A stretch of 64,000 nucleotides of DNA. It comes from Amoebophrya sp. A120. Lineage: Eukaryota; Protista; Dinoflagellata. Position numbers and translations under genes: made by a program. The stretch spans positions 124,001-188,000 of the forward strand of contig CAJINV010000022.1 of the NCBI GenBank assembly GCA_905178155.1. Reading direction: 5' to 3'. Below are positions 1-64,000 of the stretch, piece after piece; within the stretch, counting starts at the first letter, position 1, and every line of letters starts with the position of its first letter. The notes under the pieces were generated by a model. That model made no database searches and had not been told where the DNA came from. It saw nothing but the letters and a program-made list of their open reading frames with translations.

Positions 1-2872
1 GCTGGTCCGCAACTCGCCGCTCTTCAAGTACATCGCGTACGATTCTGCTTTGGACGACAACGTGATGAACCAGCACAACCAGACGGAGTTCCGCAACGCG
101 AGCGCGTTCAACAAATTGGAAACCGTGGAGGACAAGGCGTTTCACAACCAGCCGAAGGTGGTGGTGGAAGTGGAGGAGGGCGGGGAGGAAAACGAGGAGC
201 AGGGTGGGACGATCGGCGGGAGGTTGGTCATGCGGAAGAAGAATGAGCAGAAGATGAAGAAGCGGAAGCTTGTCACGCGGAAGGAGTGGGATTTGGTGGT
301 ATGATGGATTTGTCGTAGAAGTTTACGGCTTTGTCGTCCTGATAGTGATGCAACATGCATCCAATGGGATTGGATTCATGCATAATTTGTTGCAGCAATT
401 GATGTTCATCGTTAAGATGTTGATGATGCTATGTGAAACTTTTTCTTCTACGTCGTCATCGGCAAACAAAACATGCCTTCTAAACTCCACCAGGTACTCG
501 ACGAGGGGCACGTGCTGAAGAACCCGCGCACCGCCAAACACTCCGCCGTCGCCTCCATCAAGGCAAAACAGAGAATAATGTGCTCTGGCACCCCTCTGCA
601 GAACAAACTCACCGAACTGCATTCGCTCTTGTCTCTCGTGACCGAGGGCGCCGTGGTCGGCAGCCAAGCTGATTTTAATCGGCGCTTCCGTAAGCCGATG
701 GAGAAGGGCTCGCTAGCGGACTCGACGGAGGAAGAGATCGAGGCGAAAACCAAGGCGGCCAAGCGGTTCAAGGAGGAGTTTTATGGCGTAGTCAAATGTT
801 ACATTCTCAACTGGTACTTACATGATTTGTCATGCAAAAACACTATCACTCTTAACGCTATCAAGCCTTCTCCGCATGACAACTTCTCGACGCGCTAGAT
901 AGCATTATAATAAATATGCTCCAAACCTGTAATGCAAAAGGCGCAACGTTTTCCCTTTCACTTTTGCCATTCTTGCATTACAAATTTTATGTAACAGTTG
1001 AGAATGTCACGTTTGAGAGAGCCATAAGTTTCTGAAGTCGTTTGTGATGCGGCGCAAGAAGGACAGCATCGAGAAGGACATTCCAACGGGGTTTGTCAAG
1101 CGCGAGTTGGAGTACAAGGCCGGCAAGGACCTGCTGGAGGGACACTTGTCGCAAGAGGATCCACAACTTCATGGAGGTGGTGCCGGTGGAAAGCTGAATG
1201 CTGATGCAACCTCTGGCGCTTCTGCTTCCGCGACCTCCTCTTCCTCTGCCGCGGTGAATTCAGTTGTCAAGATGAAAGTGGAAGTTCCGTCCTTGGATGC
1301 GAAAAAGACCGAGGTAGTTCTTTTGCTTGAAGGTTTTGGTATATTCCGAGCAACATTTTGATGATGGGACGATGCCATGCATGATGCAGCTAGTACTTCT
1401 ACTGCGTGACGTCCTTGATGTATGTCTGGTGTGTGGTTGCAATGAAAAACAAGATGTTTTACTCATAGTTTTTTACTCATCACAACTTGTCGAGATCCTC
1501 GTGTGGTGCCCGGTGGTCAAGGACTCCATTCAGGAGAAGATGTACAAAAAAGCTCTCAATACCCGGGATATGCGGCGGCTGTTGCGGGAATTGCAACAAC
1601 AGGGGGAGTTTGGGGAGAACTGGAAGAACGGAAACGCATTGGCGCAGATTGCTAAGCTGAAGCTGCTCTCCAACCACGCAGTGCTGGGACTGAGGAAGCG
1701 CGACCAGGTGCAACTTAGATAGGACTTTTCTTCTTACAGGCTGGCGCGGTCGCCTTCCTGTTATTTGTCGCACAGTCAGCAGTAGACGCTGGGTGAGGAT
1801 GTTTTGCGGAGTTGCAAAGTAAAATGCCGTTACTTGCCAAAACACTTACTCAGAAATGGAACACGGAACTGGGCCCGGATGACGAACTCGACGAGGATAA
1901 GCTGGATCAATCCCCAGAGGGCATTGTCGAGTCCAGCAGCAAGTTTCAGGTGATTCTCCATCTGGTCCAACAGTGGCGGAAAAACCGCGAGAAGTTCGTT
2001 ATCTTCTCGAGCTCAACACAGATGTTAAACTTGCTGGAATACGCCATTTTCGAGCCCCGGAACTACAACGTCCTGCGCCTCGACGGCAGTACAACATCGC
2101 GGGAACGGAAGGACGCGATCCGGAGTTTCCAGGACGAGAAGACGAATCGGTTGATCAACGGAATGCTGCTGTCTACGCGCGCGATGGGTCAGGGGGTGAC
2201 CCTTACTGCTGCCTCGAAGTGTATTATCGTCGACCCGGACTGGAACCCGACGGCGGATGAACAGGCGATGGATCGCATTCACAGAATCGGACAAGACCAG
2301 GACGTCGAAGTCTTCCGGTTGTTCACCAAGAGTTTCATCGAGGAGCACATGTGGTGTTTGCAAACCATGAAACGGATCATCACCAAGTCCGCCTTCGAAA
2401 GTGAGGAACAAAAAAGGTATATTTGTGGTGCCTTGCTGGGAGAAAGAGAATTGTAATGAGGTTAGATGCAGCCGGTTCATCTGGGTAATCAGAATGTCAG
2501 GCTCCTCTTGTCATGCGTGATAGAAAACCGTTACCGTAAAAATTGAAAAACGCTATCAGGTTAATCGCCCAGGCGGATCTGAAGAAGTGCTTCACACTCG
2601 GCCGGGAACCAGCCGCCCACACCTACTGCGAACTGCTGGCGAAAGACGACGGAGTCGCGAAGTCGTTCGCAACGGCGAAAAAATCCGACGAGACCAGCCT
2701 GCTGAAGAAGTGTCTGCTCAGCAACGGGAACACGGTGCTGGACGTGATCAAAAATTCTCCGGACGACGTGGACTTTGGCGACTTGGAAGAGGACGGCAGT
2801 GACGAAGAGGAGAGTGAGGACGAGGACAGCTTTTTGCAGCAGGGGGCGAAGAAAAGGAGGATCGGGATGTAG
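1..2872 (+). CDS. SNF2-family helicase-like ATPase (Rad54/ERCC6-like), 5'-truncated, 6 exons in window
   Basis: Spliced motifs WDLVV|LDEGHVLKN, SGTPLQNKLTEL, LRLDGST, LLSTRAMGQGVTLTAA, DPDWNPTADEQAMDRIHRIGQ. Introns 299-493, 782-1031, 1314-1494, 1708-1853 and 2417-2559 all keep frame; stop at 2872. Confidence 0.9.
299..493 (+). other. GT-AG intron with residual direct repeat
   Basis: GTATGA...CCAG; removal joins WDLV-VLDEGH; GGTA repeated at both junctions. Confidence 0.85.
782..1026. mobile_element. Introner family H
   Basis: TSD AGTTT/AGTTT; ~32-bp TIR TATGGCGTAGTCAAATGTTACATTCTCAACTG; removal gives EEFLKSFVMRR; no GT-AG register. Confidence 0.9.
1314..1494 (+). other. GT-AG intron
   Basis: GAG|GTAG...CGAG|ATC joins KKTE-ILVWCP in frame. 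Confidence 0.8.
1708..1853 (+). other. GT-AG intron
   Basis: CAG|GTGC...TCAG|AAA joins RDQ-KWN in frame. Confidence 0.75.
2417..2559 (+). other. GT-AG intron carrying the introner motif
   Basis: AG|GTAT...TCAG|G joins QKR-LIAQ; contains TTGTCATGC at ~2508. Confidence 0.8.
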
Positions 2873-5490: not shown

Positions 5491-8400
5491 ATGGTCGACC
5501 TTCTCACCGCCACCGGCGCGGTGGTGGGTTCCACCCTGCTGGGCGGCGCGGGGTCCCTGTGGGAATACAACCAGGGCATCTGGCAGTTCGACAAGGCGCA
5601 GCGGCAGAACCAGGTCCACCAGCTGCAGAACATGCGGTGCACGCAGGCCGGTATGTTCCGCGAAGACATCCGAGATCTCTTCGGTTTAACCATCGCGAAA
5701 ATGGACAGCTACTTGACCGTGAACACACTGCAATATGCCTTGCAAAAGTATCATCCTAGTAGAAACGCGCATGACGAATTTGCTCAGCATGACAAATGGA
5801 AACTGTCATGCAGATTTAGCTTGGAAAGGAGATTTGTCTTGCATGATTGCGATTCACACGAGTGCGATGCTTTTGCAATGGATATACAACTCGGGTTCGC
5901 GATCAACCTCTTCTACGACAACGAGTTGTTCAAAGTCGCCCCTTATGTATTGCAAAAATGTCTGGGTCTGGAAGAATGCAACTTGTGATGCTATTTTTGG
6001 AATCCAAAAAAGTCTGTATTGCATGAGCAGCAAGAGTTTTTTTGCTCCGCGGAGAGGGGATTTCTCATGCGGGATAGGCATCAAGATGCCCGCAAAGAAT
6101 TTGTGATGCTGGGGCATACATCACAGACGTCACGGGTCATGCAAAATGTGCATGACAAACCTTGCCATCTCTCAGACCCAGACATTTTTGCATTTCATAC
6201 CCCGACCTGGATTTTCGCCCTTTACGCCCTGTCCGTCGGAGCGTCGGTTTTGTTCTTCGTGCTCTCTATGTGGTACTCGGTTTACGCCTCGATTGCCGCC
6301 CAGTCCTGCACGGTCCGGTGCTTGACGCAAGCGCTCCGCGTTCCGATTCCCCGGGTGGAAGAGTACGCGCACGCGCGGGCGTATGCGACAGACTACGAAT
6401 CCGAGGTGGCGACGGCGTTTCGGCTGCCGTTTCTGCAGAAGCACCGGGCGGGGAGGAGGAAGCCGCTGTTGCATATCCAGGAAAAAACACCCATCCCCAT
6501 CCAATTTTTCGTGCAAAACATGCACCATAAAATCCACTACTTGCCATGCAAATAATGGATGGGGATGGGTGTTTTTTCCTGGATATTGCAGGTCTTCACA
6601 GATATGGTGTTTGGAGGGGGAAAAGATCAAGATGGTGAAAGTCAAAACGGAAGTAGTAAAGCTACGAATTCCACCCAGCAGCACGTCAAAACCGGAGACG
6701 GAACATCAAATGGTAAAAATGGAAAAAATAGTACCATGACAAGTAGATTTAAAAACCTCTTGTCGCCAAAATCTACCCGTTCTACTTCAAAACCACCGGC
6801 AGAGGGGGACCGGTTTGTCCTTCAGTCCCAACTCTCCATACCCCAACTGTGCGCTTCGGACGCGGGGTTCGCACGGGCGGTGGAAGTGGACAAAGAGATT
6901 CTGGGACAAGAGGAAAGTGAGGATGACGACGATAGAGATTCTGACGCCGACCTCCTCGAAGACTCGCCGGTGTCGTCCCCAAATGACCAAAATCGACGTC
7001 CCGATCATCTCACGAAAGACGAAGACGGCGGCCCGGCAAAGATCGCAGTGAGTGAAAGGCCGTTTCAACAGCAAGGGATGGTGAACAATAAAGCGACAAG
7101 ATTCGAGACCACCGAGGGTCATGACAACTCTTCAGATATTAACCACCAGAAGATGAAGACCAAATCTCTACAACTTCGCCGGAGCAACACGACCAAGCGA
7201 ATCCAGAATCGGAATAATAGTAATTTCCACTTTCACTACTTCGACGAGTTCCAAGACCGGTGGCGCGGCTTCGACACGTTAGCGCGAATCTTGATGGGGA
7301 TGGGAACGTATATCCAATGCAAAAGCAAGCATCGTACAACTCGTACTAATTGCAGTGCAGCATGACAGATCTAGCTTCTTAGCTAGTTTAGCATATACAA
7401 ATTGATTCACCTTTTCCTTCTGTGAAAATTGAAATTCGTATATGCTATTTCTACTAGTACTAGCTAGGTAGTACAATGCTTTTCCAATGCATAACGTATC
7501 ACTTACTACAATCAACCGTGTACTACGCGTTAGGTTGGGTGGTTTTCTACAAAAACGAGTATTTGGGCGGATTGATCTACATGGTGTTGCTTACCACGGT
7601 GCAATACTTGTTAACGAAGCTGGAACTGTATTTGAGAAAGTGGGAGGAAGTGAAAATGTTTCTGCTCATCGTCGTTCCACCGGCCTTGAGTTTCCTCATC
7701 GTCATTCTCGCCCACAACGACAATGCGGCGAACAGCACCAATAGTAACCGGGACAGCAAGGAAATTTCCGATGCGGAAAAGTATCTAACCCCGCTCGTGT
7801 TTCTCGCACATTTGATGTACTACAAGGAGCTACTGTGGCTGTCTCCCGCGTTCGGATCGCCCTCGACGAACAATTTTATCAACTGCAAATAAAGTATCGT
7901 ACGTAGTAGTAATTGCAATACAAATTATCTCAGCGTGACAAATGGAATTTGTCATGCTGTTTTGCCTTGGGATGGGGATTTGTAATGCATAACTGCAATT
8001 AGTACGAGTGCGATACTTTTTGCACAGGATAAATTTCCGCGCGACGCAATTCACGGAATTTCTGACCAGCTCGGCGTCGACGTTAGTGAAGGAAAAACAG
8101 ACCACTTTGGATTTGTTTGATAAAAGCGAGGAGATGCTGTTACACGAGATTGTTGAGGAAGATCCGGACGAGATGACGGCTTCTAAACAAGGTGGACGCA
8201 GCAAGAGCCCGCTCACAATGGGCGGGCTGGGAAGCCGCGGTCATTCTGGGTCCTCTGAGGTGCTCGGTGACGGAACAATTGCGGGTGGGAATACAAGTGG
8301 TATTGGCAGTAGTTCTAGAAACTTTGTTGACCAGCAGGCTGTGGGCCTCCACGGTGAAAACAGTAGAGCAAAGGGAGTTACCTTCCAGGAGGAGTCCTCC

Positions 8401-11400
8401 GGGACAAAAGGTCCCGCAGGGCGAGCTGCATCTGCCACTGCTTCATCCGGAAGATCTTCTGTCACTGCAAGAAGTTCCACAGAGCTCTTTCCCGGGCAAG
8501 AGGAACTCGAGCTGCGACTCGCATCCCTGCTCCAACTCTTCAATAGCGAATATGTGACGGCGCAGCTCGACGAAATTCGCTTGTCAGTCGTGGAGCAAGT
8601 GACCGACTCGTTCGCGAAGGCGCAGCAACTCTTGAACACAGTGGAACGGTTGAGGGAAAGCCGGAAGAAAAATAAAGCCGTAGTTGCAACTTTATTTACT
8701 ACAACAGCCGGGATCTTCGGGAACAAGAACAACACTTCTAAAGCCAAAAAGCTAAAAATCGAGAAGAACCGGGCCTACGTCGAGCTTTTCTACTACTCCG
8801 ACCGGGGAATCCCCTTGCCGTACTACGTGAATATCCCGTGCAAAAGTATCGTACTCGTACTAATCGCATTCATGCATTACAAATGTCTTTCTCAAGTTCA
8901 ATACGCATATACAAATTTTATTTCTCATGCTGAGGCAATTTGTATTGCGATTTATACAAGTGCGATACTTTTGCACCGCATAGTGAATCCAGTGTTACAA
9001 CAAACCACCTGGGACAAACCCTTGGACTACAAGCCACCCAATTTGTTCACTTTGCAGCGCGCCGGGAATTTCTTTGCCAAGGCGGTCAGGAACGGGATGG
9101 AAAAGGAGGAGGTTATTTTGAGTACAACTACTCATGTCCGTGATCAAGATCATGCGGGGGACCCCCACGACGACGGCATCAATAGCGCTGAAGCTGGACC
9201 ACACCATAGCGAAGCCGAAGAGGGCGGCACCGGAGCAGGAGGTAGTGCGGTATCCTGTGCAAAAGTATCGTACTCGTATTGCAATCATGCACTACAAATC
9301 TTGTTCTTAAGGTAAATTAGCATTTACAAATTTTATTTCTCATGCTGAGGAAATTTGTAATGCATTTATACGAGTGCGTACTTTTGCAATGCATATGCGG
9401 AATACAGGAACAACAACACTGCCGGCGGTACTACAAACGTGGCTGGTACAAGTACAACCACGAGAGAAGATTTGCTAGACGATGTGAACACGACTGAGCG
9501 GAATGTAGTACTCGCTGCAGACGCTGTGAACATCCAAATCACGACCGCTCAAGAAGAACATCGGACGACTTCTTCCACCGTTAAAAATCAGGGCGAAAAA
9601 ACGTTGACGAAAGCCAAATCCCGATCCATCGTGCGATTCGGCAGCTCTGTTTTCGACGGGACAAACCACTACCTTCACGACGACATGTATGGAACTGCCA
9701 GAATCGAAATCGTCAAAATCGAAATGATTTGTGATGCATAAAATCGATACGAGTTGGAGCCTCAGTTTCCAAGTGGCGCATGACAAATTTCGGGAGCACC
9801 AAAATCCACTCTGTCGCGCTGTTTGGGCAAAGAAGACTGCTCCTGTCATGCTACTCTGGCAGCACATCGTCTTCCCCGAAGCAGGCTTAGAATCGGTCTC
9901 ATTTGCCTGCGCCCCAGCACAGACCTTGCGCGCCCTACATTTTATGCATATGCAAGTTTTTCGATTTTGTCGATTTCGATCCTGACACTCCCATAACATG
10001 TACGACGGTGCGAGCGCGGACGCCTATTTGTATAGCAACACTTCCCAAGCAGCTTTTACGATCGAGGGTCGGCACACGATGAGTGATAGTTTTGACTACA
10101 ACGCGGAGGGTGAAGATAATGGTCCTCATGATCATGATGCAAGAGCTGCAAAAATCATGTCGCCGAACAAACTGATCAAGCACCATATGGCAGTGCACAA
10201 CTCCCCTTCCCCCTCATTTGAATAGCATGAACGGCAATACAAGCATCAGCAAGACTGCCGGATTTGCATCGCAAATTTGCACTGGAGTGTAGTTCTGTTT
10301 GGGCTCCTACCAGAATTTGTCATGCATAATATTGACAGGAGGGAAAGCGTGGATTTGGTATTCTGCATGAGAAATGAGAACGAAGGGGTGTTGTGCACTG
10401 TCATACACCATCTAACCGAGATAGAAGACACGATCCGCACCGTGACGCAGGAAGACGATCCTGAGATGAACGACTCAATTCTGAAGGGAAAACCAAACAA
10501 CACAAGCACAACTGGAGGCAGCAGATCCGTACAACAAAATCGACGCAAACTGGCACAGCAACCCAGTTACATCGTCCGGACTTCTTCTGGCGCGAAGGTT
10601 TCCCATACACCACCACTGCCGCGGACCGCGACGGCGACGAGCTTGCCGAACGCAGTGCCGGAAACGTTCGGGCGGTATTTACCGAAGGTGGTCACGACGC
10701 AACAGAACAAATTCGACCAGGACTTGCCAACAAGAATTTTCCGGATTGGCACCGGAAGTGTTTTCTTTCTCTCTTTCGTCTGCTTCGTGTGGAGTATCCT
10801 CGTGTTGTTCGATTTCTTGAAGGTGGGAGGCAGTGTATCCCGTGGAAATACTGTTTGTTCACTGTGATGGTTTTCTTGCAAGTTTTGCATCACAAGTCTG
10901 TTCTACTTCCTACATCACAGGAATAGACCAAGTTTGCCATGCGAGATTCCTAAGGTGAAACACGCCTACAAATGCATTATCGTGCATGTGTAGCAAGACA
11001 AACACTTTTGCGATGCACTTTATGCACTACAAGTTCTCAGTGAAGCAGTTTTTTCTCGTGATGCAGCGGGAAGCCGACACTGATCCACAACGGCACGACG
11101 CACCAGAGGGATATGTCGTCGGCGAGTCGGTATGCACTGCAAATTGTATTACAAAGCATTGCAAATGAAATTTGTAATGCTGTTTTACGTGAGGAAGGAT
11201 ATTTGTCTTGCATAACAGCAATTACTACGAGTGCGATACTTTTGCAGTGGATAGTCGGGTAATTCGACGTCGGGTCAGGAGGTTGGAGGGGGAGGATGTG
11301 GATTGGGGAATGGAGAGTGGTGATGTCGATGTAGCAGAAGAAATTGCATCACGAACTACAACTGCCGCTGGAAGCAATTCGAATTATGAAAGAGGGCATT

Positions 11401-11954
11401 TCTCTGACTCTGGGAGAAGCGGGAACAAGCTTAGGTTCAAGATTGAGCACCTCGCGGCGCAATTTTGCGACCACCGGAGAAGTATGCTAAGCGCGACAGA
11501 AACATCAGGTGGTTCGGAGACAATGCAGGTTGAACACCAGCAGTTCCAGCAGGCCAACGAAAAGCATCCCCCGACTTCGAAGAAGAGAACAAGTGAGCAA
11601 CTAGTAGTCGTACCACCACGACAAACTCAAATGTGCACAGCAAAGCAAATTCGGAAATACACGCGGCATCTACAGGAGGAGGCTGAGGTGGTGGAGGATG
11701 GGTTTCTGGATTTGCAGGAAATTCAGCGCTATTTGGAAACTAGAAAGGAATCTTTATCGCACGATCATCTATTTGAAGAATCGGCCACAGATGCTGGTTC
11801 TCGAGAAAAAATCGATCTACGAAGAGAGCTTCAGGATATAATACTTCTTGCCGCGAAGCACAAGGAGGTCCAAGAACCAGCCGATAACTCATCCAGTGAA
11901 ATGAATTTAGGGCGTCCACTTACGGCCGACGAAAAAGAACGATCTCGACATTGA
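5491..11954 (+). CDS. Large multipass membrane protein with WW-like motif; 3' exon structure after ~10835 uncertain
   Basis: Nine introner removals chain the ORFs 5491-10835 into one frame. Hydrophobic segments at ~5890, 6210-6300, 7510-7710 and 10760-10820; YYVNPVLQQTTWDKP after splicing. The join to ORF 11208-11954 is not resolved. Confidence 0.7.
5734..5884. mobile_element. Introner family A (in-frame, stop-free)
   Basis: TSD TGCAA/TACAA; TIR TATGCCTTGCAAAAGTATC; 156-nt removal gives NTLQLGFAI. Confidence 0.85.
5944..6199. mobile_element. Introner family B
   Basis: TSD CCCCT/CCCCG; TIR TATGTATTGCAAAAATGTCTGGGTCTG; frame restored. Confidence 0.9.
6474..6585. mobile_element. Introner family C
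   Basis: TSD TTGCA/TTGCA; perfect 30-bp TIR TATCCAGGAAAAAACACCCATCCCCATCCA. Confidence 0.95.
7311..7493. mobile_element. Introner, family A-like (degenerate)
   Basis: TSD ACGTA/ACGTA; TATCCAATGCAAAAGCA...TGCTTTTCCAATGCATA; gives GTYHLLQS. Confidence 0.85.
7877..8031. mobile_element. Introner family A (reverse orientation)
   Basis: TSD AATTT/AATTT; ends GATACTTTTTGCACAGGATA; frame restored. Confidence 0.9.
8832..8982. mobile_element. Introner family A (in-frame, stop-free, splits WW-like motif)
   Basis: TSD GTGAA/GTGAA; TIR TATCCCGTGCAAAAGTATCG. Confidence 0.9.
9251..9395. mobile_element. Introner family A
   Basis: TSD TGCGG/TGCGG; TATCCTGTGCAAAAG...CTTTTGCAATGCATA. Confidence 0.9.
9688..9995. 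mobile_element. Introner family D
   Basis: TSD ACATG/ACATG; TIR TATGGAACTGCCAGAATCGAAATCGTCAAAATCGAAA. Confidence 0.9.
10186..10405. mobile_element. Introner family E
   Basis: TSD CACCA/CACCA; TIR TATGGCAGTGCACAACTCCCCTTC. Confidence 0.9.
10836..11040. mobile_element. Probable degenerate introner, 3' end unclear
   Basis: Begins TATCCCGTGGAAA where the ORF turns non-coding; contains GCATCACAA; no convincing second TSD next to an ATA end. Confidence 0.4.
11131..11253. mobile_element. Introner family A (short)
   Basis: TSD GTCGG/GTCGG; TATGCACTGCAAA...TTTGCAGTGGATA. Confidence 0.85.
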
Positions 11955-26929: not shown

Positions 26930-27961
26930 ATGATGGGAAGTCCCGAACTTGGAAGGATCAGTTATCCAAAGAAAAAAACCCATCCACATCCAATTTGTCA
27001 TGCAAAAAACGTATAAAATCATGTGTTTGTCATGCAAAAAATGGATGTGGATGGGTTTTTTTCTGTGGATATCAGTTACTCTAATCCTCCAAGCGCGAAG
27101 GCCAGTCCCGAACTTATGGAAGCGTCAGGTTTGAAATCGTCAAAGTTGATATAATTTGTAATGCATAAAGTGCGACACAAAAAGCGACTCTATTGCAGAG
27201 GACCCACGGGAGGCAGATTATACATAGTCCTGGTAAGGGTCAAAAGTTGGATTGCTAACTAGCATGACAGAAGGCAGCTCTTTTGCCCTCAACCGCACGA
27301 CAGACTCGCTTCCAGGAACGGGAAAGTTTGTCATGCGCCGACTACAAACTGTAGGTCTAAACGGTATCCGTTTTATGCATGACAAACTATTTCAACTTTG
27401 ACGATTTCAAACCTGACACATCCATAGAACTCGGAAGGAACATCACAACGACCTCGGGAAGTAGACCTGAACCCTATGGAAGCGTCAGGATTGAAATCGT
27501 CAAAGTTGAAATAGTTTGTGATGCATAAAATGCAACCCACAAAGTGCCTGTCTTGCAGAGTAGGCAAGGGAGGCAGATTGTAAGCCTGTCGAGGGGTAGG
27601 ATCACTGCTGCTAAAGTAGCACGACAAAAGGCGTCTTCCTTACCTAAACAGCATGACAAACTGGATCTCGGCTCTACTCAAATTTGTCATGCGCCGCTTA
27701 GAAATTGGGCTTCCAACTGGTATCGATTTTATGCATTACAAGTTATTTCAACTTTGTCGATTTCAACTCTGACACATCCATAAAGCAGAGCAGATTCTGG
27801 ACATCTCCGAAGCAGAGTCAGAGGCGGAAGATGGTGATAAGCAGGGGCGCTTGCGATCCCTAAGTCCGGCAGCTGCCTCGACCGTTGCCGGGAGCATGGC
27901 GGTGTCCCACGTCACCGGCGCTTCCTCGTCTGCAGCCACCGCTACAGGCACCTTCTTATGA
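26930..27961 (+). CDS. Putative chimeric mini-gene (~90 aa) with three introners
   Basis: Spliced: MMGSPELGRISYSNPPSAKASPELGRNITTTSGSRPE-EQILDISEAESEAEDGDKQGRLRSLSP...GTFL*. Confidence 0.55.
26963..27071. mobile_element. Introner family C
   Basis: TSD TCAGT/TCAGT; empty site in the paralog at ~28798. Confidence 0.95.
27115..27426. mobile_element. Introner family D
   Basis: TSD GAACT/GAACT; empty site in the paralog at ~28836. Confidence 0.93.
27475..27782. mobile_element. Introner family D with mismatched TSD
   Basis: Intact TIRs; flanks AACCC/AAGCA; element+5 nt removal keeps frame. Confidence 0.85.
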
Positions 27962-51800: not shown

Positions 51801-54800
51801 TTTGGACTACTGGAAATCGGACGACTTGACGCCGAATATCAAAAGCTGCGGGACCTGGCTTCGAGCGAAAAATACAAGGTTTACATTTCCGACGACAACC
51901 TCGACGCCGACCCGCGGACGGTCACTGCTGAAGAAAATGGCATTGGCATTCACCCTGCTAACCTCGCTATGCCAGAAAAAAACCGTGTGAGTGTAAGTCT
52001 GTAGTGCGAAGTATGCAGGGGGCTGGGCGGACAGTTACACTTGTCATTCTGGCCAGCCATACACATACCAGCGCCCTCGCTTCATTCGTGTTCTCCTTCT
52101 CGCGTACTCACCGTGCATGAGAGGAATTCTCTGTCATGCAGAGCAGATAATAATTTGTCATGCTCATGTTGTTGATGTCTATGGCACGACCCCGAGGCAC
52201 CTATAAATGATACTACGATTTCTAGCACAGTGGTTTATTTTTTCTTGTATACTCGCGCAGGCCAGGTGTCTACTGATGTCGATGTGGATTGGAAAGGTTC
52301 TACCAACCGAGCAGGCGGGCGCAGGGTCAAGAACAAGAACTGGCGATTCATCTTCAAGCGCAGCAGGACCAACTGACGCATCAGCGACGGAAGATGATAT
52401 TAGAACCATCGGCAGCTGCTCAAGCGATGACGACGGACCGGATGACGACAGCACTGACGTCAGCACACCGGAATTGTTGAAAAAACAGATTATTCAACTG
52501 GGGAAAGAAATGCGGCTCGTTGATATGAAGATCGGCGACCTTGCGGCAGATGTGAACGAGAAACAGATGAGAAAGGTAGAAGAAAAAATTGAAGAGAGAA
52601 AAGATGGGACGAGATGGAGTCCGAACTATATGTGGAAGCTCGTGAAGGCACAAAGAGAGTTCTCAGTACAGCTATTGGAACTTGCAAAGCGCGACCGCAA
52701 GTACCAAAAGCTGCGGGACCTGGCTGCAAGCGGAACATACAACATTCCTGACGACGACCTCGACGATGACCCGCGGAAGTCTGATGCTTCGATATTTTCG
52801 CGGATTCATTTTCTCGCGAATGCGAGGGCCGCCTACGGGGAAGTGACCGGAATTGCCTCACGACCAACCGAGCAGGCGAGCGCAGAGTCAAGAACTGGCG
52901 CTTCCTCAACTGCAGCACCAGGACGGCCTGCCGCATCTTCAGCGACGAATGCAGCTGCTCCTGGAGCAGGGGAAGATGTTGAACTACGTGTAACGTCCAG
53001 CACGTCACCAGGCCCTACAGTCGAACAGAAACAACGACGGCAGAAGGCACGCGACAGGCTGGAAACATTGTCGCAGGCGACCATGCCGGACTTTATTCGT
53101 CTGGCAGAAGCCGCCGCTGCCGACGGCCTAATAACCACCGAGTATCAAATGCAAGTATATCTGGGTCGTCTGGATGAAACTTATGATGCAAACCAGGAAA
53201 AAATAACGGACGCGCTGTAAAAATATTACGCGGCCATGCATGACATAGGTTTTGAGCAGCTACGTGTTGCGTATTTCGCATGGCAGAATGCGCAGATTTT
53301 GCATGAGACAAGGACGATCTGTCAGTTTGCAGCTACGAATGACAGAGTTCCGAGTCATGTCAGAGTCAGACGAGCATGACAAAAATAAATCTTGCAATGT
53401 TCCAGACCCAGACATATTTGCAATTGATACTGAGCAAAAGCGCACGTTTGTGGAGTATTTGGAACAACAACTCGCGAACTTTCGCAGAGCGCATCAAGTG
53501 TGGGAATTCTCGGAAGCAACACTGTCACGAGCCGATTTCGAGGACATCCTGGACCAGGAAGAAAAGGCTGTGCGGCGGACGGTGCTACAGGGGATAAAAC
53601 AATGGACGGAGCTCATAATGGTGCAGCGAATCAAGATCCACCAAGCACACGAAGCAGCACTTCCGCGCTCTTCTCTCGCACAGCCCGCACCAGCAGGGGC
53701 TTCCTCTTCTGATACAGGAGCAACTGCAGTTGCGGCACCGGCGGCGGAGGACAGTGCGAGTCTGGGGCATGACGTAGTGCTGCAGAATCAAATTTTGAAC
53801 GTTCTGCGAGAACAAGTGCCACCAGCTCTGCCTCTAACGCAGTCGGAGCAAGAATTCCGTCGTCTCTGGGACGAGCGAGAGCGTCTTTGCGACCAGGGCC
53901 GAGCAAGCCGTGCGACAACTGATAACGACATGCGGAGCTGGCAACTAACAGGCTTACTAGAAGATGATCACAGCACGACCGCGCCGGATGAACAACACCT
54001 CAGGCGACAGAGAGACCTGCAAGACCAGATGGTGTTGCGTCTACTATGGCGGCCAAATGCCCTGGATGTACTGGACGAAAGATCAACAACAGAGCTACCG
54101 ATGTGCCAGCACACCCTGTTTGCCATTCGGGTCCGTTCCCCCGCGGCCGTGCAGCAGGTGCAGGCACAGCAGCCTGCAAGCGCAGGATCAAGAGCGGGCG
54201 CTTCCTCGAGTGCAGCAGGACCACCTGCCGCATCAGCGACGGAGGCTAGTAGGAAGACTCGCCCAGCACAGGAGGAAGAGGAAGACGTAAATCTACTTCA
54301 CCAAGGAAGTGGTGGTGAATCTAGTAGTACCTTCTCTTCACCGCCACGCCAGGGTAGACAACTACCACCGGGGGATCCTGTTTCTTCGGCGCCAGATCAT
54401 GCTGGGCCGATGACGCCACAGTTCGGTCGTGCAGCGGGGGAAAGAAGAACAAGCGCAAGTTCATCTTCACAGCCTCGAGATGAACTACCGCCTCATGATG
54501 CTTCGTCGGGGGCACGGGCAGCAGGCGGTGGTACAATTTCTGCCGGAGGAATTGAGGCCGGTGCCGGAGATGAAAACACTGCAGCAGGAGCTCCTGCTGC
54601 TCTGGGTCTGGTTCCGTCGTCCTCAACTACTGCTCCTGGTGCTTCGGGTCCAGAACCAGAAGAACTACCTCAGCCTGGTCGACTACGATCACTGGTTCTA
54701 GGACCACCGAAAGTGGACCAGCATGATGTCGACCACCAGGGCCAGCAAATAAAGCAGCACCGCGGAGGCTTGTATTCGTTGGCTGGGCCGATGACGCCAC

Positions 54801-57800
54801 AGTTCGGGCGCGCAGCGGCGGGAAGAATAAGCGCAACTTCATCTTCACAGCCTGCTCGAGATGAACTACCGCCTGATGCTTTATCGGGGGTTGCAGGCGG
54901 TGGATCTTCTACTTCGAGAGCAGATGGCGCAGGAGCGCACCAGAACATCAACCCTAGTGCCACTGCTACTGCTGCTCCGCCGCAGTCGCTACTGCAACAA
55001 GGCGGGCTTCGGGCTGCGCTCACTGCGTCGCCGGTCATCGAAGGCACGCCAGCGCCGCCGTACCGAGAAGAGCAACTTAGAGGAGGAGCAATAGCCCCCT
55101 CTTTGCAGGAAGAAGGTCTCGGTCTGCTCTCGCACCCACCTTATAGTTCCGCAACAGCAATACGCGAAGGAGTTGTTATAATAGATGAAGGCCCAGGTGG
55201 TACTAGTAGCTCGTTGTTCATCCCGTCTGGGCATGGTTCTGCAGGAGCTCTGGCAGCCAGTGCCGCGACGTTTTACCCAGAGCCAACGTTTTACCCAGAG
55301 CCACCATATCCCACTTCTAGGGACGGTCTTGATCCTCAACCGCTTTATTCCTCCGACCGCCCGCAGCTGTATCATGGCGCCCGGGTAGACCTAGATGACC
55401 CTACCCACCCCATCAACCAACCATTAGATCCAGAGCCCGCGCGGGGACGAGGCGTAGTTCAAATCGCCCGTTCCCGCGGTAGCAGCGTGGACTCGATGCA
55501 GGAATTACATGGCGGCAACTATAGCGGGATTAAGACCGCGGATTACACGTCGTCCACAGTGTCGCCGGCGACTGCGGGCGGAATTGTTTCGCCGTCTACG
55601 GTATCGCCACTATCAAGCGCAAATATGATGTTAGTCATCCAGAGCCAGTTTGGTTTTGAAAGATGAAGGGGTTGTTGAGTATTATAAGTTCTGTGTGATC
55701 TTGCTGTTTCGCCTTTGGCTTTGCATCATTCGAAGCGAGGAACACCGACCGCACTTTGATTTTTACCGACTGGGACTGGTGCTCTGGTATTACTAACATC
55801 CTACTTGCCGAGTGCATACCCATCCACTGTTGTGATAGGAGACGTCGACGCTAGGGGAAGGAGTCCTTCTCCCGAGGACGCACGACCGCTGGAGGTTCTT
55901 CTCGACCCGCACGACACAGGACAAGAACCACAGCACCAACAACCCCCACCCGCACGACCTGCTCTTTTAGCTGGTCAGCAGCACCAGCGCCATCAATTCT
56001 CCCCACATGCTGCAGAATTTCGTCCGGGGATGGTTTCTCATGGGGCGGTGGCAGCCCCGCAGGAGCAAACACCCCAAGGAGAACTACATGTAGGACAACT
56101 AGTGCAGCCACCTGCAGCAGGTGGGAGTACTCCAGCGATGGCTCTGCAGCCAATACTAGGCAACATGTCCAATGCAACAGCCTCCGACTACCATCAATAT
56201 GCAGCCCCGAACTACGTCTATCCGAGCCCGTATCCAGGTTCTTGGGGCTCGCCGTTGAGTGCAGCTGGAACGAGCTTTTATCCCCAGCAGGAGCTGCAGG
56301 AGCAGCAGCTGCAGCAAGAAGCACTACAATACTTTGCAGCTCCCGAGCTGCAACAACTACAACACGAGACAGGCACTGCTTATTCCCCAATGATGTTCTC
56401 ACCTATGGTCCCGCCGCCGCAGGGAGGTTACAATCAAGGTCATCAAGCTGCTCAAGCCGCAGGACATCTTCAACTAGGTCAGCAACAAATGCAGCAGCAA
56501 ATGCAGCAGCAGCAAATGGTGCAGCAGCCGCCCATCATGGGTTTCATGCAGCCGATGATGAGTCAGAGTCCGATGTCTACTTTCAATGTTGTGCAGCCTA
56601 TGATGCAGCAGCAGCAGCACCTTTACCAGCCACAGATGCAGATGCCTCAACCGCAGCAGGTTGCTGCACCGACGCAGATGCAGCAGCACCAGCAGGTTGT
56701 TTTTCCGGAAGCTGGTGCTACGTCAACACCGATGCACTCTCAGCAGCAAGAAGGCATTCGCCAAGGCCAACAAACGGCTGCGACTGATGAGTCACAGCTT
56801 GCTTCTGCTATGAGCGTGCACAACACCCCCTCATTTCAGGGACATGAACATGTCATCTAGCAACACAACTACTAACAACCTGCGAGGAGATGTGCTGTAG
56901 CTTTCGAATGACAGATGATCCACACCCAGGCTTTATTTGTACAGTTTGGGCTTCCAGAACTTGTCATGCAATGCCCAGATAGGATTTAGATTTTGCATTT
57001 TGGATGTGGAGTCGTGAGCAGGAACAGGATGAGAGGGAGTTGTGCACTTTCATACCGGGTGGTGCTGCGCCCCCGCCAAACCGCGAGCGCGCCAACCCCA
57101 ACGTTTGGAAGGGAGTCCCCGCGCAAATATCGTTACTGGCCGCGGGATATCTTGTGCAAAAGTATCGTAGTCATATAAATGCAAGACTTGCATTACAAAT
57201 CCTTTTCGTAGGGTAAATTCGCATTACAAATTTCATTTCTCATGCTGAGGGAATTTGTCATGCATTTATACGAGTGCGATACTTTTGCAGTTCATACGGG
57301 AGCCGCCGCCAGCGGAGGCAAGGAAGCACAAGGCCGGTTTCCAAGGACGCCTAAATTTGGAAAACGAGGTGACTCGTCGAAGAAGACCACCAGCGGTCCA
57401 GTAGATTCGGACGACGAGCAGAGCCCCGCCGCGAGTAGCTCAACGTTTGCCCGCGTTCCAGAGGACCCATCTTCTCCTTCTTCTTCGCCAAACAGGCCGA
57501 TTGCAGAGCAGCGCAGATCGTCTCCCCAACGCCAAATAGAGCAGGTTGAGGAGTTTGAGTTTCCGACCCGCGGCCGAGGTGGAGGTGGTCTGTTCGGGTT
57601 CCTGCATGATAGAGGTCGCGTAGAAGCGACCCAGGATCCTACCCAAGCGACTGGCTCTGGGACACTTCATGGCGTTGGAGGAGGTGCTAGTAGCTCTTCG
57701 TCGGCCCTTCCTATAGCCGGTGTACAGGCGGAGCAAGAGCAACAGCGAGAAGAACAAGAACGCCCGCACGAGAACCAGGAGACGCAACGCCTGCTGGAAC

Positions 57801-58499
57801 GAGTGCTGCAGAGCCAGGACGATTACAGAGAAAGCAATTTCCCTGGTTTCCTAGAAGCCGGTCGCGAAAGAAAACGAGAAATATTGAGACAATTCGAGTC
57901 ACATCTATGAAAGCCTCAGGTTGGAAATCCTCAAAGTGAAAATAATTTGTAATGCAAAAAAACGACTCCAGTTGGAGCACCGTTTCTAGTCGGCGCATGA
58001 CAAATTTTCCGGGCACTCAAAACGTGTCTGTCATGCTAGTTAGGCAAAGGGGTGCCCTTCTCTCATGCTAATCAGCAGCCTAATTCTGAACCCGTAGAAG
58101 CACAATAGTCGGCCTCCATTGCGTTCTCTGCAATACAGTCTTTTTGGTGCCGCATTTCATGCGTCACAAATTATTTCCACGTTGAGGATTTCCATTCTGA
58201 GGGTGTCATAACATCTCCGAGGCACTGGCATGCTCCGGAAGGTTTTACAAGCCCAGAGGAATAAGGAGGCGCATCAGCAGCGAGAGCAGCGAGAACGAGA
58301 AGTTAACTTGAGTGCAGCACGAACGAGAACTGACGAGCGAGTGCAACGAGAAATCGTGGAAAGACAAAGAGCAAAGCAGCGGAGGAGTCTGAGTGTGGGT
58401 GCGGAGCCTAGGTCTACTGCGCTGGGGCGAGGAGAGCACGAGGAAGAAGAACCCGCGGCCGAGGTCGTCGAATCTGATGCGGAAACGTATTGGAAATGA
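36813..58499 (+). CDS. Giant lineage-specific protein (~5,240 aa if all 20 introners are spliced), with internal helical repeats
   Basis: Twenty successive element removals each land in the frame of the next ORF (21,687 - 5,973 = 15,714 nt). Weakest joins are at 38399, 41050, 55624 and 56809. Confidence 0.65.
37574..37719. mobile_element. Introner family A (reverse orientation)
   Basis: TSD CTACA/CTACA. Confidence 0.92.
37775..37938. mobile_element. Introner family G (ACA end)
   Basis: TSD CGTCC/CGTCC; TATCAAACAAAAAAGTGTTAAC...GTTAACACTTTTTCCTGTGACA. Confidence 0.9.
38399..38616. mobile_element. Degenerate introner
   Basis: TAT...GATA; flanks GTGGG/CTGAT; GCATGACAG inside; element+5 keeps frame. 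Confidence 0.5.
39643..39792. mobile_element. Introner family A
   Basis: TSD TGCAC/TGCAC. Confidence 0.92.
39867..40126. mobile_element. Introner family B
   Basis: TSD GAACA/GAACA. Confidence 0.92.
40672..40933. mobile_element. Introner family B
   Basis: TSD CGAAC/CGAAC. Confidence 0.92.
41050..41309. mobile_element. Introner family B between duplicated exons
   Basis: Family B TIRs, ends GCATC; no 5-bp TSD; flanked by a ~110-bp duplication. Confidence 0.8.
42330..42582. mobile_element. Introner family B (in-frame, stop-free)
   Basis: TSD ATGCT/ATGCT; perfect TIR TATCAAATGCAAAAGTGTCTGGGTCTGGAA. Confidence 0.93.
42626..42861. mobile_element. Introner family H (opposite orientation to 782)
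   Basis: TSD GTTTG/GTTTG; TIR shared with 782-1026. Confidence 0.92.
44222..44529. mobile_element. Introner, singleton
   Basis: TATCATGGAGAAAA...TTTTCTCGATGATA; flanks TCGCT/ACGCC; frame restored. Confidence 0.75.
46214..46536. mobile_element. Introner family D
   Basis: TSD GGGCA/GGGCA. Confidence 0.92.
46819..46971. mobile_element. Introner family A (reverse orientation)
   Basis: TSD GTAGT/GTAGT. Confidence 0.92.
47367..47684. mobile_element. Degenerate introner, singleton
   Basis: TAT...CATA; TSD CACCG/CACTG; frame restored; TIR weak. Confidence 0.65.
47761..49133. mobile_element. 1.37-kb foldback (palindromic) element within coding sequence, 8-bp TSD
   Basis: TSD GCAGCACA twice; ~120-bp TIR starting TATGAACGTGCAAAATGCAAAAGGGGTCAACCTAAACAGAGAAG; symmetry axis at ~48447; removal gives VEAAHDDNY. 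Confidence 0.93.
51968..52251. mobile_element. Introner, singleton
   Basis: TSD CTCGC/CTCGC; TATGCCAGAAAAAAACC...GGTTTATTTTTTCTTGTATA. Confidence 0.85.
53143..53429. mobile_element. Introner family B
   Basis: TSD CCGAG/CTGAG; removal gives GLITTEQK, matching the uninterrupted repeat GLITHEQK. Confidence 0.92.
55624..55803. mobile_element. TIR intron without apparent TSD
   Basis: TATGATGTTAGTCATCCAGAGC pairs with GCTCTGGTATTACTAACATCCTA; 180-nt removal keeps frame. Confidence 0.65.
56809..57054. mobile_element. Introner family E
   Basis: TIR TATGAGCGTGCACAACACCCCCTCAT; flanks TCTGC/CCGGG diverged; element+5 keeps frame. Confidence 0.8.
57148..57296. mobile_element. Introner family A
   Basis: TSD CGGGA/CGGGA. 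Confidence 0.92.
57906..58210. mobile_element. Introner family D-like
   Basis: TSD ACATC/ACATC; TIR TATGAAAGCCTCAGGTTGGAAATCCTCAA. Confidence 0.9.
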
Positions 58500-60546: not shown

Positions 60547-63500
60547 ATGTCGCGGTTCCCTCCAGCAAAAAGTATTCCAAAATGGCTTTACCTGTGCGCG
60601 GTTACAATACAGCGGTCTGTCTTCTCCGCGGCGCCAGCTGCTGCCCCAGGAGCCATTCCTCAGACACCCTTTTCGCCAAATCCCCGCACAGGAGGAGGAA
60701 CGCGACGAGAGGACAGGGGAAAAGAAAAAGTCCAGTATCAATGTCGTGCCGCAGACCACGATTTTTCAGCTCTTTCTGGACAAATGGAAGCCATGTCAAT
60801 CGGAGGAAACGGAAAGGCAAGAGGACCAGAGGCTGCACAACATCCTCTCATCGAGTCCTTGAGAAGCATGTCGCTTGGATCTGGTGGAAAGACAGAAGCG
60901 AAAACTGCTACGCCGAGTTATATTGCATCATCGATGATACAACCCAGCAGTTGTTGCACCAGTGTGCAACACGACGCTAAGCCGGCTTCTCCCTTCCCCT
61001 GGCCGACCGAGTACCACGATGGATGGTGATGAGCTTTTCAACATGTCCAGAGACGTGCTCGAATTGGTGCGCAACCTGATTTTACAAGAGACGCACGCCA
61101 TTTTTTCCTGCGCGGCAGAAGGTCCTGGTTTTGTAGACAAGGCGTTGGCGTACGAGCGAACAATGCGGTCGGCGGTTTTGTCCAATTTGGAAAAAGTTAG
61201 CAGCCAGTCGTATCAGGGGAAGAGAAATATTAAGGGGATAGCACAGGAAAAGGACATGGATAGTATCAAGCGCCGAAAAGTTGCTGTGCTGTCAGCTGCA
61301 GAAGAAGGATATCAAACTCAACAACTCCTGGTGATCCGCGCCCGGTTGCTGGCCCTCCTTGTCTTCACCGACATCCGGCGGTTTATGTTTGAAACGGCAA
61401 AACATTGGTCAGACGAAACGCGGGAACAGTATCGCTGCCGAGAACCGTCGAAAGGACATTTGCTTGAGCTATTGCGGGAATTGACGAGGGAAGATGAAGC
61501 GATGACTAATCGTCCGGGGAATGCTAGCCGCGATACACCAAGGCCAATCATCAGCCAAATGTTGAATTTTCTCGCCGAGGAAGTGCGAGAGGTCGGGGAA
61601 AATCGAAACGCGAGCAACGGCGTGAAGCGGCTCGTAAGTGAGCAAGATGGTATTGATCACGTGCGGGCGGCAGCGTTGCGGGAGAAAGACAAAGAAGCTA
61701 CAACATGTTATCCACCGTCTTCAAGTAGTTCTTCTGCTGCAACGACCGCGTCCACGGCGGCGTCTTCTAATTCCGGTGGGTCAACATCTGCTGGCTCAGG
61801 CTCAGCATCCGTTGCTTCTTCACACCCTTCTGCACGAGCAGATACGATCACCTATGACGACTACATGGAAAAAACGTTGGAATACACAACCCGACAGCTC
61901 GGTGTAGCTTTTCGAAAATTCGCCTCAACCCCGATGCGGTGCGCTTTAGCGGGCTTGCGCTACCCGCATGAACTCCATGAAACAACAGTTGCAGTGTCAC
62001 CCGACCGAGCCTGGCTGTACCGGGTGCTTTGGGCGCTCACGCACTGCGCGCCAGCGAGAGTCGCGCAGGGGAAAACAGAGTATGACAAGCTGGTGCAGAA
62101 AACGGGTGGTCTGCCTTCGCCGGATGCGTACCGGTACGCCAAACTCGGGGCAGAAGTGGTGGACGACGAGGACGAGGACGATGATGATGCGCGTTTTCCT
62201 GACAAGGAGTTGAACAGATCCAAATCATTTTCAGCGTCATCCGGAGGAGCAAATAGAGCAATGACAGCATTCAATATCGCTGGTGGTCCAGCACTTGATG
62301 TTCCTCCCACAGAAATAACATCAAAAGAAGACCGCGCGAACATCAAGCACCACAACCACAAGCCACGTCTGAAGTTCAAAGTAGCTCCCCGATTTTGGAC
62401 CTTTCAATCAGAACCGCTTCCGCACTTTCACAGCAGGCTGGTGTTCGAGCTAGCAAGGGCTGACGCGGTGAAGCAGGCAAAGCTGAAAATGGAGAGAAGT
62501 AGTAGAAGCTGCCAACCGGGGAGCTGCAAACGAGGTGGAGTAAAAGGGGGTCTTTCCGATAGTTCGCGAGCACGTACTTCTAAAAGAAGAAGCCACGACG
62601 GGCAAGACGAAGACGACGATGTAGAAAAAAACGAGCCATTCCTGGTCAACACCCTGAAAGACGCGGTGCGGGGGATAAAGCTGAGGCCCGCACAATCGTC
62701 GACGTTCGTGGGCCCGCTGTGGATTAACTCTGCACAGCGCCAGGGTGAATCTCAGGAGCCAGCACAGGTAGAAAAGTTTATCACTGCAGCCCTGCAGAAC
62801 GACATTTCCTCTCGCCCCGAACAGGATCCGCGCCGCATGCAGCTGAAGAAAGCGCTGCAAAACATTCGGAACTTCTACGAGTCGGATTTTGGTGTGCCAC
62901 GAGAATTTTTACAGCCAACAGGAGGCCAACGCGACGCGGAGCAAGCATCTGCTACTTCAGCTCCACAAAAAACGAAGAAAGAAAAAGACTTTGAGATCAA
63001 CATGACTATCGACGCCAACTGCGTGAAAAAGCGGCTTGCCTGGTGGGATCGCTTACGCACGTTGGACGACGATTATAAGCGAGATCCCACCAGTGAAGAT
63101 TCGTCGGGAAATGAGAAAGACAACCTGGAGCAGCGGTTTTTGCGAGCCAAATTTGAACAGGAACAGGGAATCAAGCGAGGCAAGCGCATGATCCAGGCGA
63201 CCATTCGGCAACAGCAGGAAAATAATGGTGGTTCTCGCCGTCGACAGCGTCAGGTGGACGAGGACTTTTTATTGTCGCACCAGAGAACAACTACCACTGT
63301 GTTCGCCGCCGCGTTCTACCGAGACGACCGATCAGGCATTCGTGCGGTTTTGCTGCGAGCCTTGTTCCAGGTCGTAAAAGAGATACGCACCGGGATCACA
63401 GATAACATTGAGTGGGTCGGTATCCACTGCAAATCTGTCTGGGTCTGGAAGATGGGCGGGAAAGTTGTTTGTCATGCAAATTGTCCATGTTGGCCCGCGA

Positions 63501-64000
63501 TGCCTGTGAGACGACCTGCTCCAGCTTCACAGCTTTCGCGAAGGCTTGCCCATGGTCATGCCTATCCTGCACGAGAAAAATAAAATGCCATCTCCGAGGG
63601 GCAAAAATCTGAGTGCTTTTGTTGCTCATGTTGCAGAAGTACAGGTTTTTTTATGATCGACAGTTGGAGGAATCACAAATCCCATAATTCTACTTTCCCG
63701 ACCCAGACGTATGAGAAAAAGCAGCACTTGTATGCACATCCGAGAAAAGATTTCGAGACACAGAAGCGAATCGAAACAACAAGGATAGCATGCGTGAATG
63801 AATGAATGAATGACCCAGACGTATTTGCAATGCATAGGCGGCACGGAGCTACATAACGGAGCAGCACTTCGACGAAAAGTTTTTGCACAGATTGCCACAC
63901 TATCAAATGTAAAAATGTCTGGGTCTGGAAGAATGCGCGATTTGTCATGCAGCTTTTCCATGGCCCATGAGCCCAGGAATGCGGGACCTAGCATGACAGA
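60547..64000 (+). CDS. Lineage-specific protein (C..GLRYP family), 3'-truncated by the window
   Basis: 873-aa ORF 60962-63583, plus a probable first exon from ATG 60547 and exon 63842-63900. Confidence 0.7.
60919..60971. mobile_element. Possible minimal 53-bp introner
   Basis: TATATTGCA...TGCAACA; flanks CGAGT/CGACG; 58-nt removal fixes the frame offset between the two ORFs. Confidence 0.4.
63421..63836. mobile_element. Introner family B with nested insertion
   Basis: TSD GTCGG/GGCGG; TATCCACTGCAAATCTGTCTGGGTC...GACCCAGACGTATTTGCAATGCATA. Confidence 0.88.
63713..63811 (+). mobile_element. Short retroposon-like insertion
   Basis: 13-bp direct repeat GACCCAGACGTAT on both sides; (TGAA)4 at the 3' end. 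Confidence 0.55.
63901..64000. mobile_element. Introner family B, truncated by window end
   Basis: TATCAAATGTAAAAATGTCTGGGTCTGGAA. Confidence 0.85.

Follow-up and report, generated by a model that had tools for sequence, protein, structure and literature searches.

Geometry, target triplet and RNA removal of the transposon-like introner elements in a 64-kb window of Amoebophrya sp. A120

The window analyzed here, 64,000 nucleotides (nt) of the dinoflagellate Amoebophrya sp. A120 (assembly GCA_905178155.1, contig CAJINV010000022.1, positions 124,001 to 188,000 of the forward strand), holds 45 complete insertions that behave as non-canonical introns. The element class and its removal are already published as A120 introner elements (Farhat 2021, PMC7789003; this and the other papers cited were available to us in part, and statements on them refer to those parts), and two products of the window, P0001 and P0003, are 100% identical to annotated A120 proteins. 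In our judgement the insertions are probably gene-less TAT...ATA elements with a 5-base-pair (bp) target-site duplication (TSD) that are lost from RNA with five extra bases; several related integrase-type transposases, each reading a one-sided triplet, would have inserted them, and the host spliceosome, in a relaxed mode guided by the element ends and not by GT-AG, would take them out. To the published class this adds a uniform geometry, a cut inside the TSD and a one-sided, family-specific triplet. Tens of thousands of A120 introns are without splice signals.

The catalogue was built from scans for terminal inverted repeats (TIRs), terminal-profile scans and one annotation-based end (11063, for the element starting at 10836; elements are named by their first position). 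The 45 complete elements measure 109-1373 nt and sum to 12,577 nt, and one more, 63901, is cut by the window end. All 45 begin with TAT; at the 3' end ATA was found in 40, ACA in three, ATG in one and ATC in one. The two TSD copies agree at five of five positions in 31 elements, at four in six, at three in five, at two in two and at none in one. A 5-mer followed by TAT...ATA and the same 5-mer was counted 34 times, against 3.7 +/- 2.5 in 30 local Markov simulations; for other end classes the same scan gave 14 against 7.7 (TAT..ACA), 9 against 6.3 (TGT..ATA) and 14 against 13.7 (TGT..ACA). The original prediction, made from this sequence before the present analysis, of about 45 introns with a 5-bp TSD and TAT ends is thus borne out. 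So is its claim that a GT-AG register is generally missing: GT..AG can be placed inside the TSD of just two of the 45 (17070 and 25459, in a count that predates end 11063 for element 10836), so that the GT/GC..AG ends of U2 introns are absent as a rule, and no AG/GT-type bias of TSD bases was seen in the window or in strand-called elements of a second assembly.

That second assembly, which holds the same families, yielded 168 loci (582 kb with overlaps) to a TIR pattern and 311 distinct elements anchored on TIR positions 8-30. Perfect 5-bp TSDs flank 235 of the 311, 42 match at 4/5, one has an exact 6-bp duplication and none an 8-bp one; 294 start with TAT, 294 end with ATA and three have TGT at the 5' end. 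Enough flank was present for 260 and a strand and frame call was obtained for 108 (179 and 130 under relaxed settings); on 39 window sites, which overlap its training set, the relaxed strand caller made 37 calls, all of them correct. An asymmetry in conservation suggested by the window (TAT in 45/45 against ATA in 40/45) was rejected, as both ends are equally conserved in the 108 strand-called elements.

Eight families (F110, F150, F220, F228, F240, F250, F280 and F305), based on similarity and shared termini, take in 37 of the 45 elements, and all eight have TAT..ATA ends, a 5-bp TSD and mostly T at position -13. Two weak members, 55611 (TIR 7/26) and 38399 (TIR 11/26), were retained on the strength of frame and ends. 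Within plus-strand genes, elements of one and the same family occur in either orientation, most elements fold end to end, and empty paralogous sites were found for 53143 and 26963. The families are repeated in the genome, with depths of up to about 9e4 in element bins of the DNA-like run X1 against about 28 in unique bins. Having a 5-bp TSD, TIRs, no coding capacity and empty sites, the elements are MITEs (short for miniature inverted-repeat transposable elements), that is, non-autonomous TIR transposons. Their terminal base counts match the inverted-repeat motif TAT, seven variable nt and at least three A. The MITE origin and the identity with known Amoebophrya introners, both put forward in the original prediction, therefore hold. 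About half of the ends (25015 and 22251, for example) read TATCC(T), which resembles the U12 donor consensus. A minor spliceosome is reported absent in A120, and this likeness is probably a coincidence.

Removal of element plus five nucleotides

When each element and five further nt are removed, 43 of the 45 elements fall in closed open reading frames (ORFs) of at least 150 codons, as had been predicted; of the other two, 63421 lies in an ORF of 880 codons that is still open where the window ends, and 14269 is in frame in a short minus-strand ORF. The restored ORFs include ones of 1,462, 1,531, 2,625 and 2,674 codons across 11, 2, 12 and 7 elements, respectively. The longest has 2,674 codons with +5 and 1,302-1,362 with uniform +4, +3 or +0, and in 200 random mixtures of +3, +4 and +5 it averaged 1,526 codons and never exceeded 2,558. 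In the second assembly frames reopen only at +2, +5 and +8, even where the TSD is eroded; with a TSD match of 3/5 or less, the frame was open with +5 in 13 of 27 cases versus 13 of 54 for +3/+4 (p 0.04). Since the frame fixes the extra length modulo 3 only, the value of five was taken from RNA and annotation.

Run X3 was taken as RNA because it is spliced at a canonical GT-AG intron (2417..2559, plus strand; a 143-nt gap), our control for spliced RNA. In one X3 contig, 379 nt separate 7304 from 8032; this equals the genomic 727 less 183+5 and 155+5 for the elements 7311..7493 and 7877..8031; the spliced-path contig is 3,867 nt long at a depth of 16.8. A contig of X5 joins 56806 to 57058 with a 1-nt overlap, skipping 251 = 246+5 nt at the element 56809..57054. 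RNA contigs thus agree with element plus five at three elements, and so do the annotated introns, 11 of 11 in P0001 and 1 of 1 in P0003, gene models made by the annotators' pipeline. The expected equality between gap and element plus five held at every one of these sites. The removal length is the element plus five nt in either orientation and needs neither GT-AG nor an intact repeat. Between 38250 and 57130, runs X3-X6 provided a bridging RNA contig at one of 15 elements and none at the other 14, 41050 and 47761 among them, the missing cover being no evidence either way; the raw RNA runs X9 and X10, with 1 and 4 reads placed and apparently of another strain, are uninformative on expression.

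The cut can be positioned where the TSD copies differ. At 56809 they read TCTGC and CCGGG (2/5), so the mRNA keeps three or four bases of the left copy and the cut lies inside the TSD, which is thus a direct repeat in the 3-5 nt range overlapping the exon/intron border. The annotated P0003 intron at 32608 (338 nt) leaves at least two left-TSD bases in the message, and P0003 reads K at a site that is E in a paralogous repeat, consistent with the left copy being used there. Gene models tolerate the 3' ends ATG and ACA.

The one-sided target triplet and the mobiliser

We looked for target preferences in rebuilt empty sites of elements with a TSD match of at least 4/5 and full flanks (314 sites). 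No base preference was found in or beside the TSD. Farther out, the 628 symmetrised half-sites have T at -13 in 51% (p 2e-66) and G at -11 in 49% (p 2e-32). In F250, the largest family, T-N-G stands on either side of 132 of 169 sites, against about 11% (2-18%) at 25 other offsets, and it is one-sided: 9 sites have it on both sides, 65 on the left, 58 on the right and 37 on neither (odds ratio 0.09, p 4e-11). After orientation the triplet is T in 81%, Y in 81% and G in 88%; in the window alone T-N-G accompanies 13 of 18 F150 and F250 sites. The side of the triplet is unlinked to element orientation (73 versus 68 of 169) and to transcription (upstream TNG in 31 versus downstream CNA in 28 of 71, on the sense strand), and this double independence points to an insertion preference at the DNA level.

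It might be argued that a triplet that sits in exon sequence 11-13 bp from the element, and accompanies a skew of reading phase, arises as a codon artefact or acts as an exonic splicing signal. That explanation is very improbable to us: the motif is as frequent upstream as downstream on the sense strand, limited to one offset and family-specific. We rejected the skew itself as a signature of splicing, since it follows from the target triplet, which predicts 48% where 41 of 71 were seen in the TNG families and 12 of 37 in the others; splicing need not be invoked.

The motif apparently varies by family, being T-Y-G for F150 and F250 (the two largest), TA(C) for F305 and TGA for F280, all at the same distance. 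The arbitrary target of the original prediction therefore stands within the TSD itself and fails at 11-13 bp. Its single transposase class fares likewise: the shared ends, the 5-bp TSD and the usual T at -13 agree with it, the family differences in the triplet do not, and a shared T with family-specific neighbours suggests several related transposases. We did not find the triplet in print; the search did not extend to Henriet et al. 2019 or Roy et al. 2023. The sequence at insertion sites is not treated in the main text of Farhat 2021, whose figures may show more of the geometry, and term look-ups in Gozashti 2022 also came back empty.

A transposase dimer would hold the two TIRs, one of its subunits would read the family-specific triplet 11-13 bp from the cut, and a staggered 5-nt cut would be followed by insertion in either orientation. 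The elements would behave like MITEs of the integrase superfamily, without fitting either IS3EU/GingerRoot or Ginger2/TDD in full. A short motif of the TTTGTCATGC / GCATGACAAA type, uncounted, turns up inside most families, unrelated ones included, and may be where a common transposase binds. Pfam gave no match in seven ORFs scanned from the two long elements (three of them from 14269), and no autonomous element sharing the TIR was seen in the window or among the 168 loci (three long cases), which is short of a genome-wide search. One candidate, positions 505-1608 of locus L023, was rejected as a copy of F305 with an internal insert; the insert is GC-rich, so that one element is nested inside an introner. 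As a likely fingerprint, the one-sided triplet may help to find and assign the missing transposases.

Excision machinery and its alternatives

In the reading that we prefer, the TIR, being symmetric, would present an identical 5' end (N-UAU-S) and an identical 3' end (a U-tract, then AUA) whichever way an element lies. Cuts would fall inside both TSD copies and, with four left bases kept, the donor would be N|UAU(G/C), in which only the first G is freed. Such a donor is close to canonical ones. Whatever the orientation, the A-run of the TIR would place a U-tract close to the 3' cut. Given the donor likeness, the U-tract and the precedent of Fritillaria, a relaxed spliceosome appears the likeliest agent, perhaps twice as likely as an endonuclease-ligase route of the Euglena type. 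A120 is reported to have an almost complete major spliceosome, in which U1 was not detected, and to lack a minor one (PMC7789003).

The endonuclease-ligase route, possible in our estimate and clearly second, would keep the transposon origin and dispense with the spliceosome: a structure-directed endonuclease would make cuts, staggered by 5 nt, across the TIR stem, and the exons would be joined by a ligase, much as has been suggested for the nonconventional introns of euglenids; the register could slide within the TSD. It draws on the end-to-end folding of most elements, on the lack of a dinucleotide rule at any register, on orientation independence, on the undetected U1 (PMC7789003) and on the introns of Euglena, whose paired motif lies at a fixed spacing from the cuts (PMC12501133). 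However, most F150 and many F250 elements have arm positions 4-7 unpaired, several folds leave the terminal 3 bp open, and a modified spliceosome handles the MITE-derived introns of Fritillaria (PMC13326754, PMC11282704). Compared with shuffled arms, pairing at these positions is not improved in F250 and is poorer in F150 (0.17 at 4, 6 and 7). Conservation therefore does not concern a clean stem end, and symmetric linear TIR signals fit as well as a hairpin. The original prediction that excision is measured from the TIR stem survives in that GT-AG and an intact repeat are dispensable and the element ends set the cut; the stem as such is no better placed than linear signals, its positions 4-7 being often unpaired.

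The register bears on this choice as well. Single TSD mismatches are synonymous in five of six cases in the window, a count that prompted a test in the second assembly, where 18 of 28 are synonymous against at most 43% for a fixed cut (p 0.017), or 13 of 20 with longer flanks (p 0.03). The excess, which hinges on the mutation model, is no more than a hint that both TSD copies reach the mRNA, i.e. that the register slides; sliding is harder to obtain from independent choice of 5' and 3' splice sites, and it is a further point for an endonuclease and ligase. A crossover anywhere in the TSD would also explain it if the elements, with their TIR/TSD anatomy, were precisely excised from DNA in the expressing life stage, as internal eliminated sequences are, by recombination between TSD copies. 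This is improbable: the DNA-like run X1, of a life stage not given, retains the elements (its record 3 spans 7311, and the 15 of 509 joints listed are all repeat noise), the joint at 56809 has a mere 1-nt overlap with a TSD of 2/5, and the frame rule survives erosion of the TSD. Hairpins with direct repeats are a known recipe for false introns, and reverse-transcriptase template switching in host ORFs that are pseudogenes could in principle imitate removal. We give this explanation the least credence of all, given ORFs open across up to 12 elements, a 3,867-nt spliced path at depth 16.8, removal of 56809 in spite of its lacking a direct repeat, and an SNF2 helicase gene among the hosts.

The synonymous excess and the sliding register it hints at count against the reading that we favour, and so do several other points. 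On the side of removal, runs X3-X6 are one sample whose RNA nature is a guess backed by one canonical splice; the position of the cut comes from one contig (depth 2.6) and one gene model; the 3' ends ACA, ATG and ATC are tolerated; and the role of the spliceosome is an inference. On the side of insertion, no transposase was found, so that the enzyme class is read from the ends and the TSD; Farhat 2021 likewise found no putative transposase in A120 (PMC7789003); the nearest superfamily with TA..TA ends, IS3EU/GingerRoot, makes 6-bp TSDs; the triplets of F305 and F280 come from only 16 and 36 sites; and one element, 47761, has an 8-bp duplication. A more far-reaching proposal, which we offer tentatively, is an undescribed superfamily of integrase-type MITEs with a one-sided family triplet at a fixed 10-bp spacing, resembling a protospacer adjacent motif, together with a host removal that is signal-free and defined by geometry, its two cuts sliding together in the TSD, so that any insertion would be a scarless intron from birth.

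A single geometry of 5-bp TSD, element plus five and cut within the TSD makes the elements with mismatched TSDs natural reporters, since raw RNA reads can show the cut register of each molecule, by which a relaxed spliceosome can be told apart from an enzyme that cuts structures.

Host genes and published relatives

The first host, a gene for an SNF2-family helicase (473-2870), has canonical introns and one introner, of F240 (782..1026, TSD AGTTT/AGTTT; below, one TSD sequence is given where the copies agree). Host gene A (5491..11954, plus strand) is that of the annotated 1458-amino-acid A120 protein P0001, with 11 introns, each an element plus five. Its F150 elements are 5734..5884 (TGCAA/TACAA, mismatch synonymous), 7877 (AATTT), 8832..8982 (GTGAA), 9251..9395 (TGCGG) and 11131..11253 (GTCGG). 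The others belong to F250 (5944..6199, CCCCT/CCCCG, mismatch synonymous, TTG at -13..-11), F110 (6474..6585, TTGCA), F305 (9688..9995, ACATG, TAC at -13..-11), F220 (10186..10405, CACCA) and F228 (10836..11063, CAGTG/CAGCG, 3' end ATG), and 7311 (ACGTA) is single; 7311 and 7877 are the two missing from the RNA contig.

A tetratricopeptide-repeat (TPR) protein gene lies at 12737-13771. The long element 14269..15459 (1191 nt) has a perfect TSD (GCAGA) and several genomic copies judging by X1 depth; the short minus-strand ORF that holds it contains a tandem-duplicated segment, which may be ubiquitin-like. Next come 17070..17352 (F280, CCAGG, GT..AG register possible, TGA at -13..-11), 17440..17739 (F305, TTTCC/TTCCC, TAC at -13..-11), 22251..22400 (F150, CACGC), 24139..24387 (F250, CAACC), 25015..25293 (F280, CTTAG), 25459..25603 (F150, GAGGT, GT..AG register possible) and 26246..26509 (F280, CCTCC, 3' end ACA). 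Around 26500-28900 the end and start of a gene are tandemly duplicated, and the copies carry different elements at different sites, which gives filled/empty pairs. This stretch holds 26963..27071 (F110, TCAGT), with its empty paralogous site near 28795, 27115..27426 (F305, GAACT), 27475..27782 (F305, AACCC/AAGCA) and 28414..28789 (F280, CGGAA), which is oriented opposite to 25015. The element under the annotated 338-nt intron is 32608..32940 (F280, GAAGC/GGAAC, 3' end ACA).

Host ORFs B (36813..47399, about 2,600 codons) and C (47660..58499, about 2,650 codons), both on the plus strand, are low-complexity, and in ORF C a unit of about 180 amino acids occurs three times in diverged form; protein searches with exons of ORFs B and C (for C, lengths 1650-4710 only) gave no match. 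ORF B has 12 elements. Those of F150 are 37574..37719 (CTACA), 39643..39792 (TGCAC) and 46819..46971 (GTAGT), and those of F250 are 39867..40126 (GAACA), 40672..40933 (CGAAC), 41050..41309 (TSD 0/5, 3' end ATC, frame kept by +5) and 42330..42582 (ATGCT); 41050 stands amid a tandem duplication of some 110 nt of exon (40934-41430). The remaining five are 42626..42861 (F240, GTTTG), 46214..46536 (F305, GGGCA, TAC at -13..-11), the singles 37775..37938 (CGTCC, 3' end ACA) and 44222..44529 (TCGCT/ACGCC), and the eroded 38399..38616 (TSD 2/5, frame kept by +5).

Seven elements interrupt ORF C. The first, 47761..49133 (1373 nt), is largely palindromic, with a 129-nt TIR, a 133-nt inner hairpin and the 8-bp duplication GCAGCACA instead of 5 bp; its frame is kept by +5 and by +8 alike. 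It is followed by the single 51968..52251 (CTCGC), 53143..53429 (F250, CCGAG/CTGAG), which is empty in two paralogous protein repeats (near 49580 and 50735), the eroded 55611..55818 (TSD 3/5), 56809 (F220), 57148..57296 (F150, CGGGA) and 57906..58210 (F305, ACATC). At the window end stand 63421..63836, with F250-type ends (GTCGG/GGCGG), and the 5' end of an F250 element (63901..64000). An Rfam search gave no match, and three scans of viral contigs gave 0, 2 and 0 matches, both of 17-23 nt and due to chance.

Among published relatives the closest are the A120 introners themselves. Farhat 2021 describes inverted repeats of TAT, seven variable bases and at least three A with direct repeats of 3-5 nt, likens them to MITEs and gives RNA support for non-canonical removal; the supplement legends include a 5-bp direct repeat (Fig. 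S19) and inverted repeats 1-5 nt from the splice sites (PMC7789003). Repeat length and position are treated there as variable, whereas here the TSD is uniformly 5 bp and removal is element plus five; that paper also argues against general mobilisation by a transposase, whereas we find a family-specific one-sided triplet and a cut inside the TSD. In the 32 of 58 rows available of Gozashti 2025 (PMC12130899), 24 of 32 A120 families are classed as 'TIR DNA' of superfamily 'Unknown', and family lengths match those of the window (about 106, 149, 260, 278, 305 and 1191 nt), family 103 having the length of 14269-15459. The automated TSD calls in those rows run from 2 to 6 nt, with no common 5-bp rule or flanking motif. 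The same study reports one A120 family with TIRs and homology to an integrase like that of long-terminal-repeat elements.

Other lineages offer partial parallels for removal. The MITE-derived introns of Fritillaria borealis have TIRs and TSDs and lie outside GT-AG, as here, but they prefer AG-AC/AG-AT ends and Fritillaria keeps U1 (PMC13326754, PMC11282704), whereas our elements show no dinucleotide preference at any register. The nonconventional introns of Euglena are also transposon-like and outside GT-AG, with cuts at a fixed spacing from a paired motif, but use CAG/CTG (PMC12501133).

For insertion, IS3EU/GingerRoot elements share with ours the TA..TA termini (294/311 at each end), the TIRs and the lack of TSD base preference (PMC10045372, PMC6839031). 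Their TSD is usually 6 bp, against 5 bp here (exact 5-bp in 235/311, exact 6-bp in 1/311), and the flanking triplet does not appear in the parts of their descriptions at hand. In Ginger2/TDD, whose TSDs are 4-5 bp long, TDD-4 and TDD-5 produce a 5-bp TSD, as here, through an integrase-like DDE enzyme, but have TGTNR termini and an AT-rich RTATAY target (PMC2836005), whereas the A120 elements have TAT termini (TGT in 3/311) and an arbitrary TSD. Retroviral integration offers a likeness for the triplet, since there too a symmetric average may hide a motif of one half-site (PMC10547254). The retroviral motifs are weak and near the cut, whereas that of A120 is strong, 11-13 bp away and nearly exclusive between sides, and as a targeting rule it would be out of the ordinary among eukaryotic DNA transposons.

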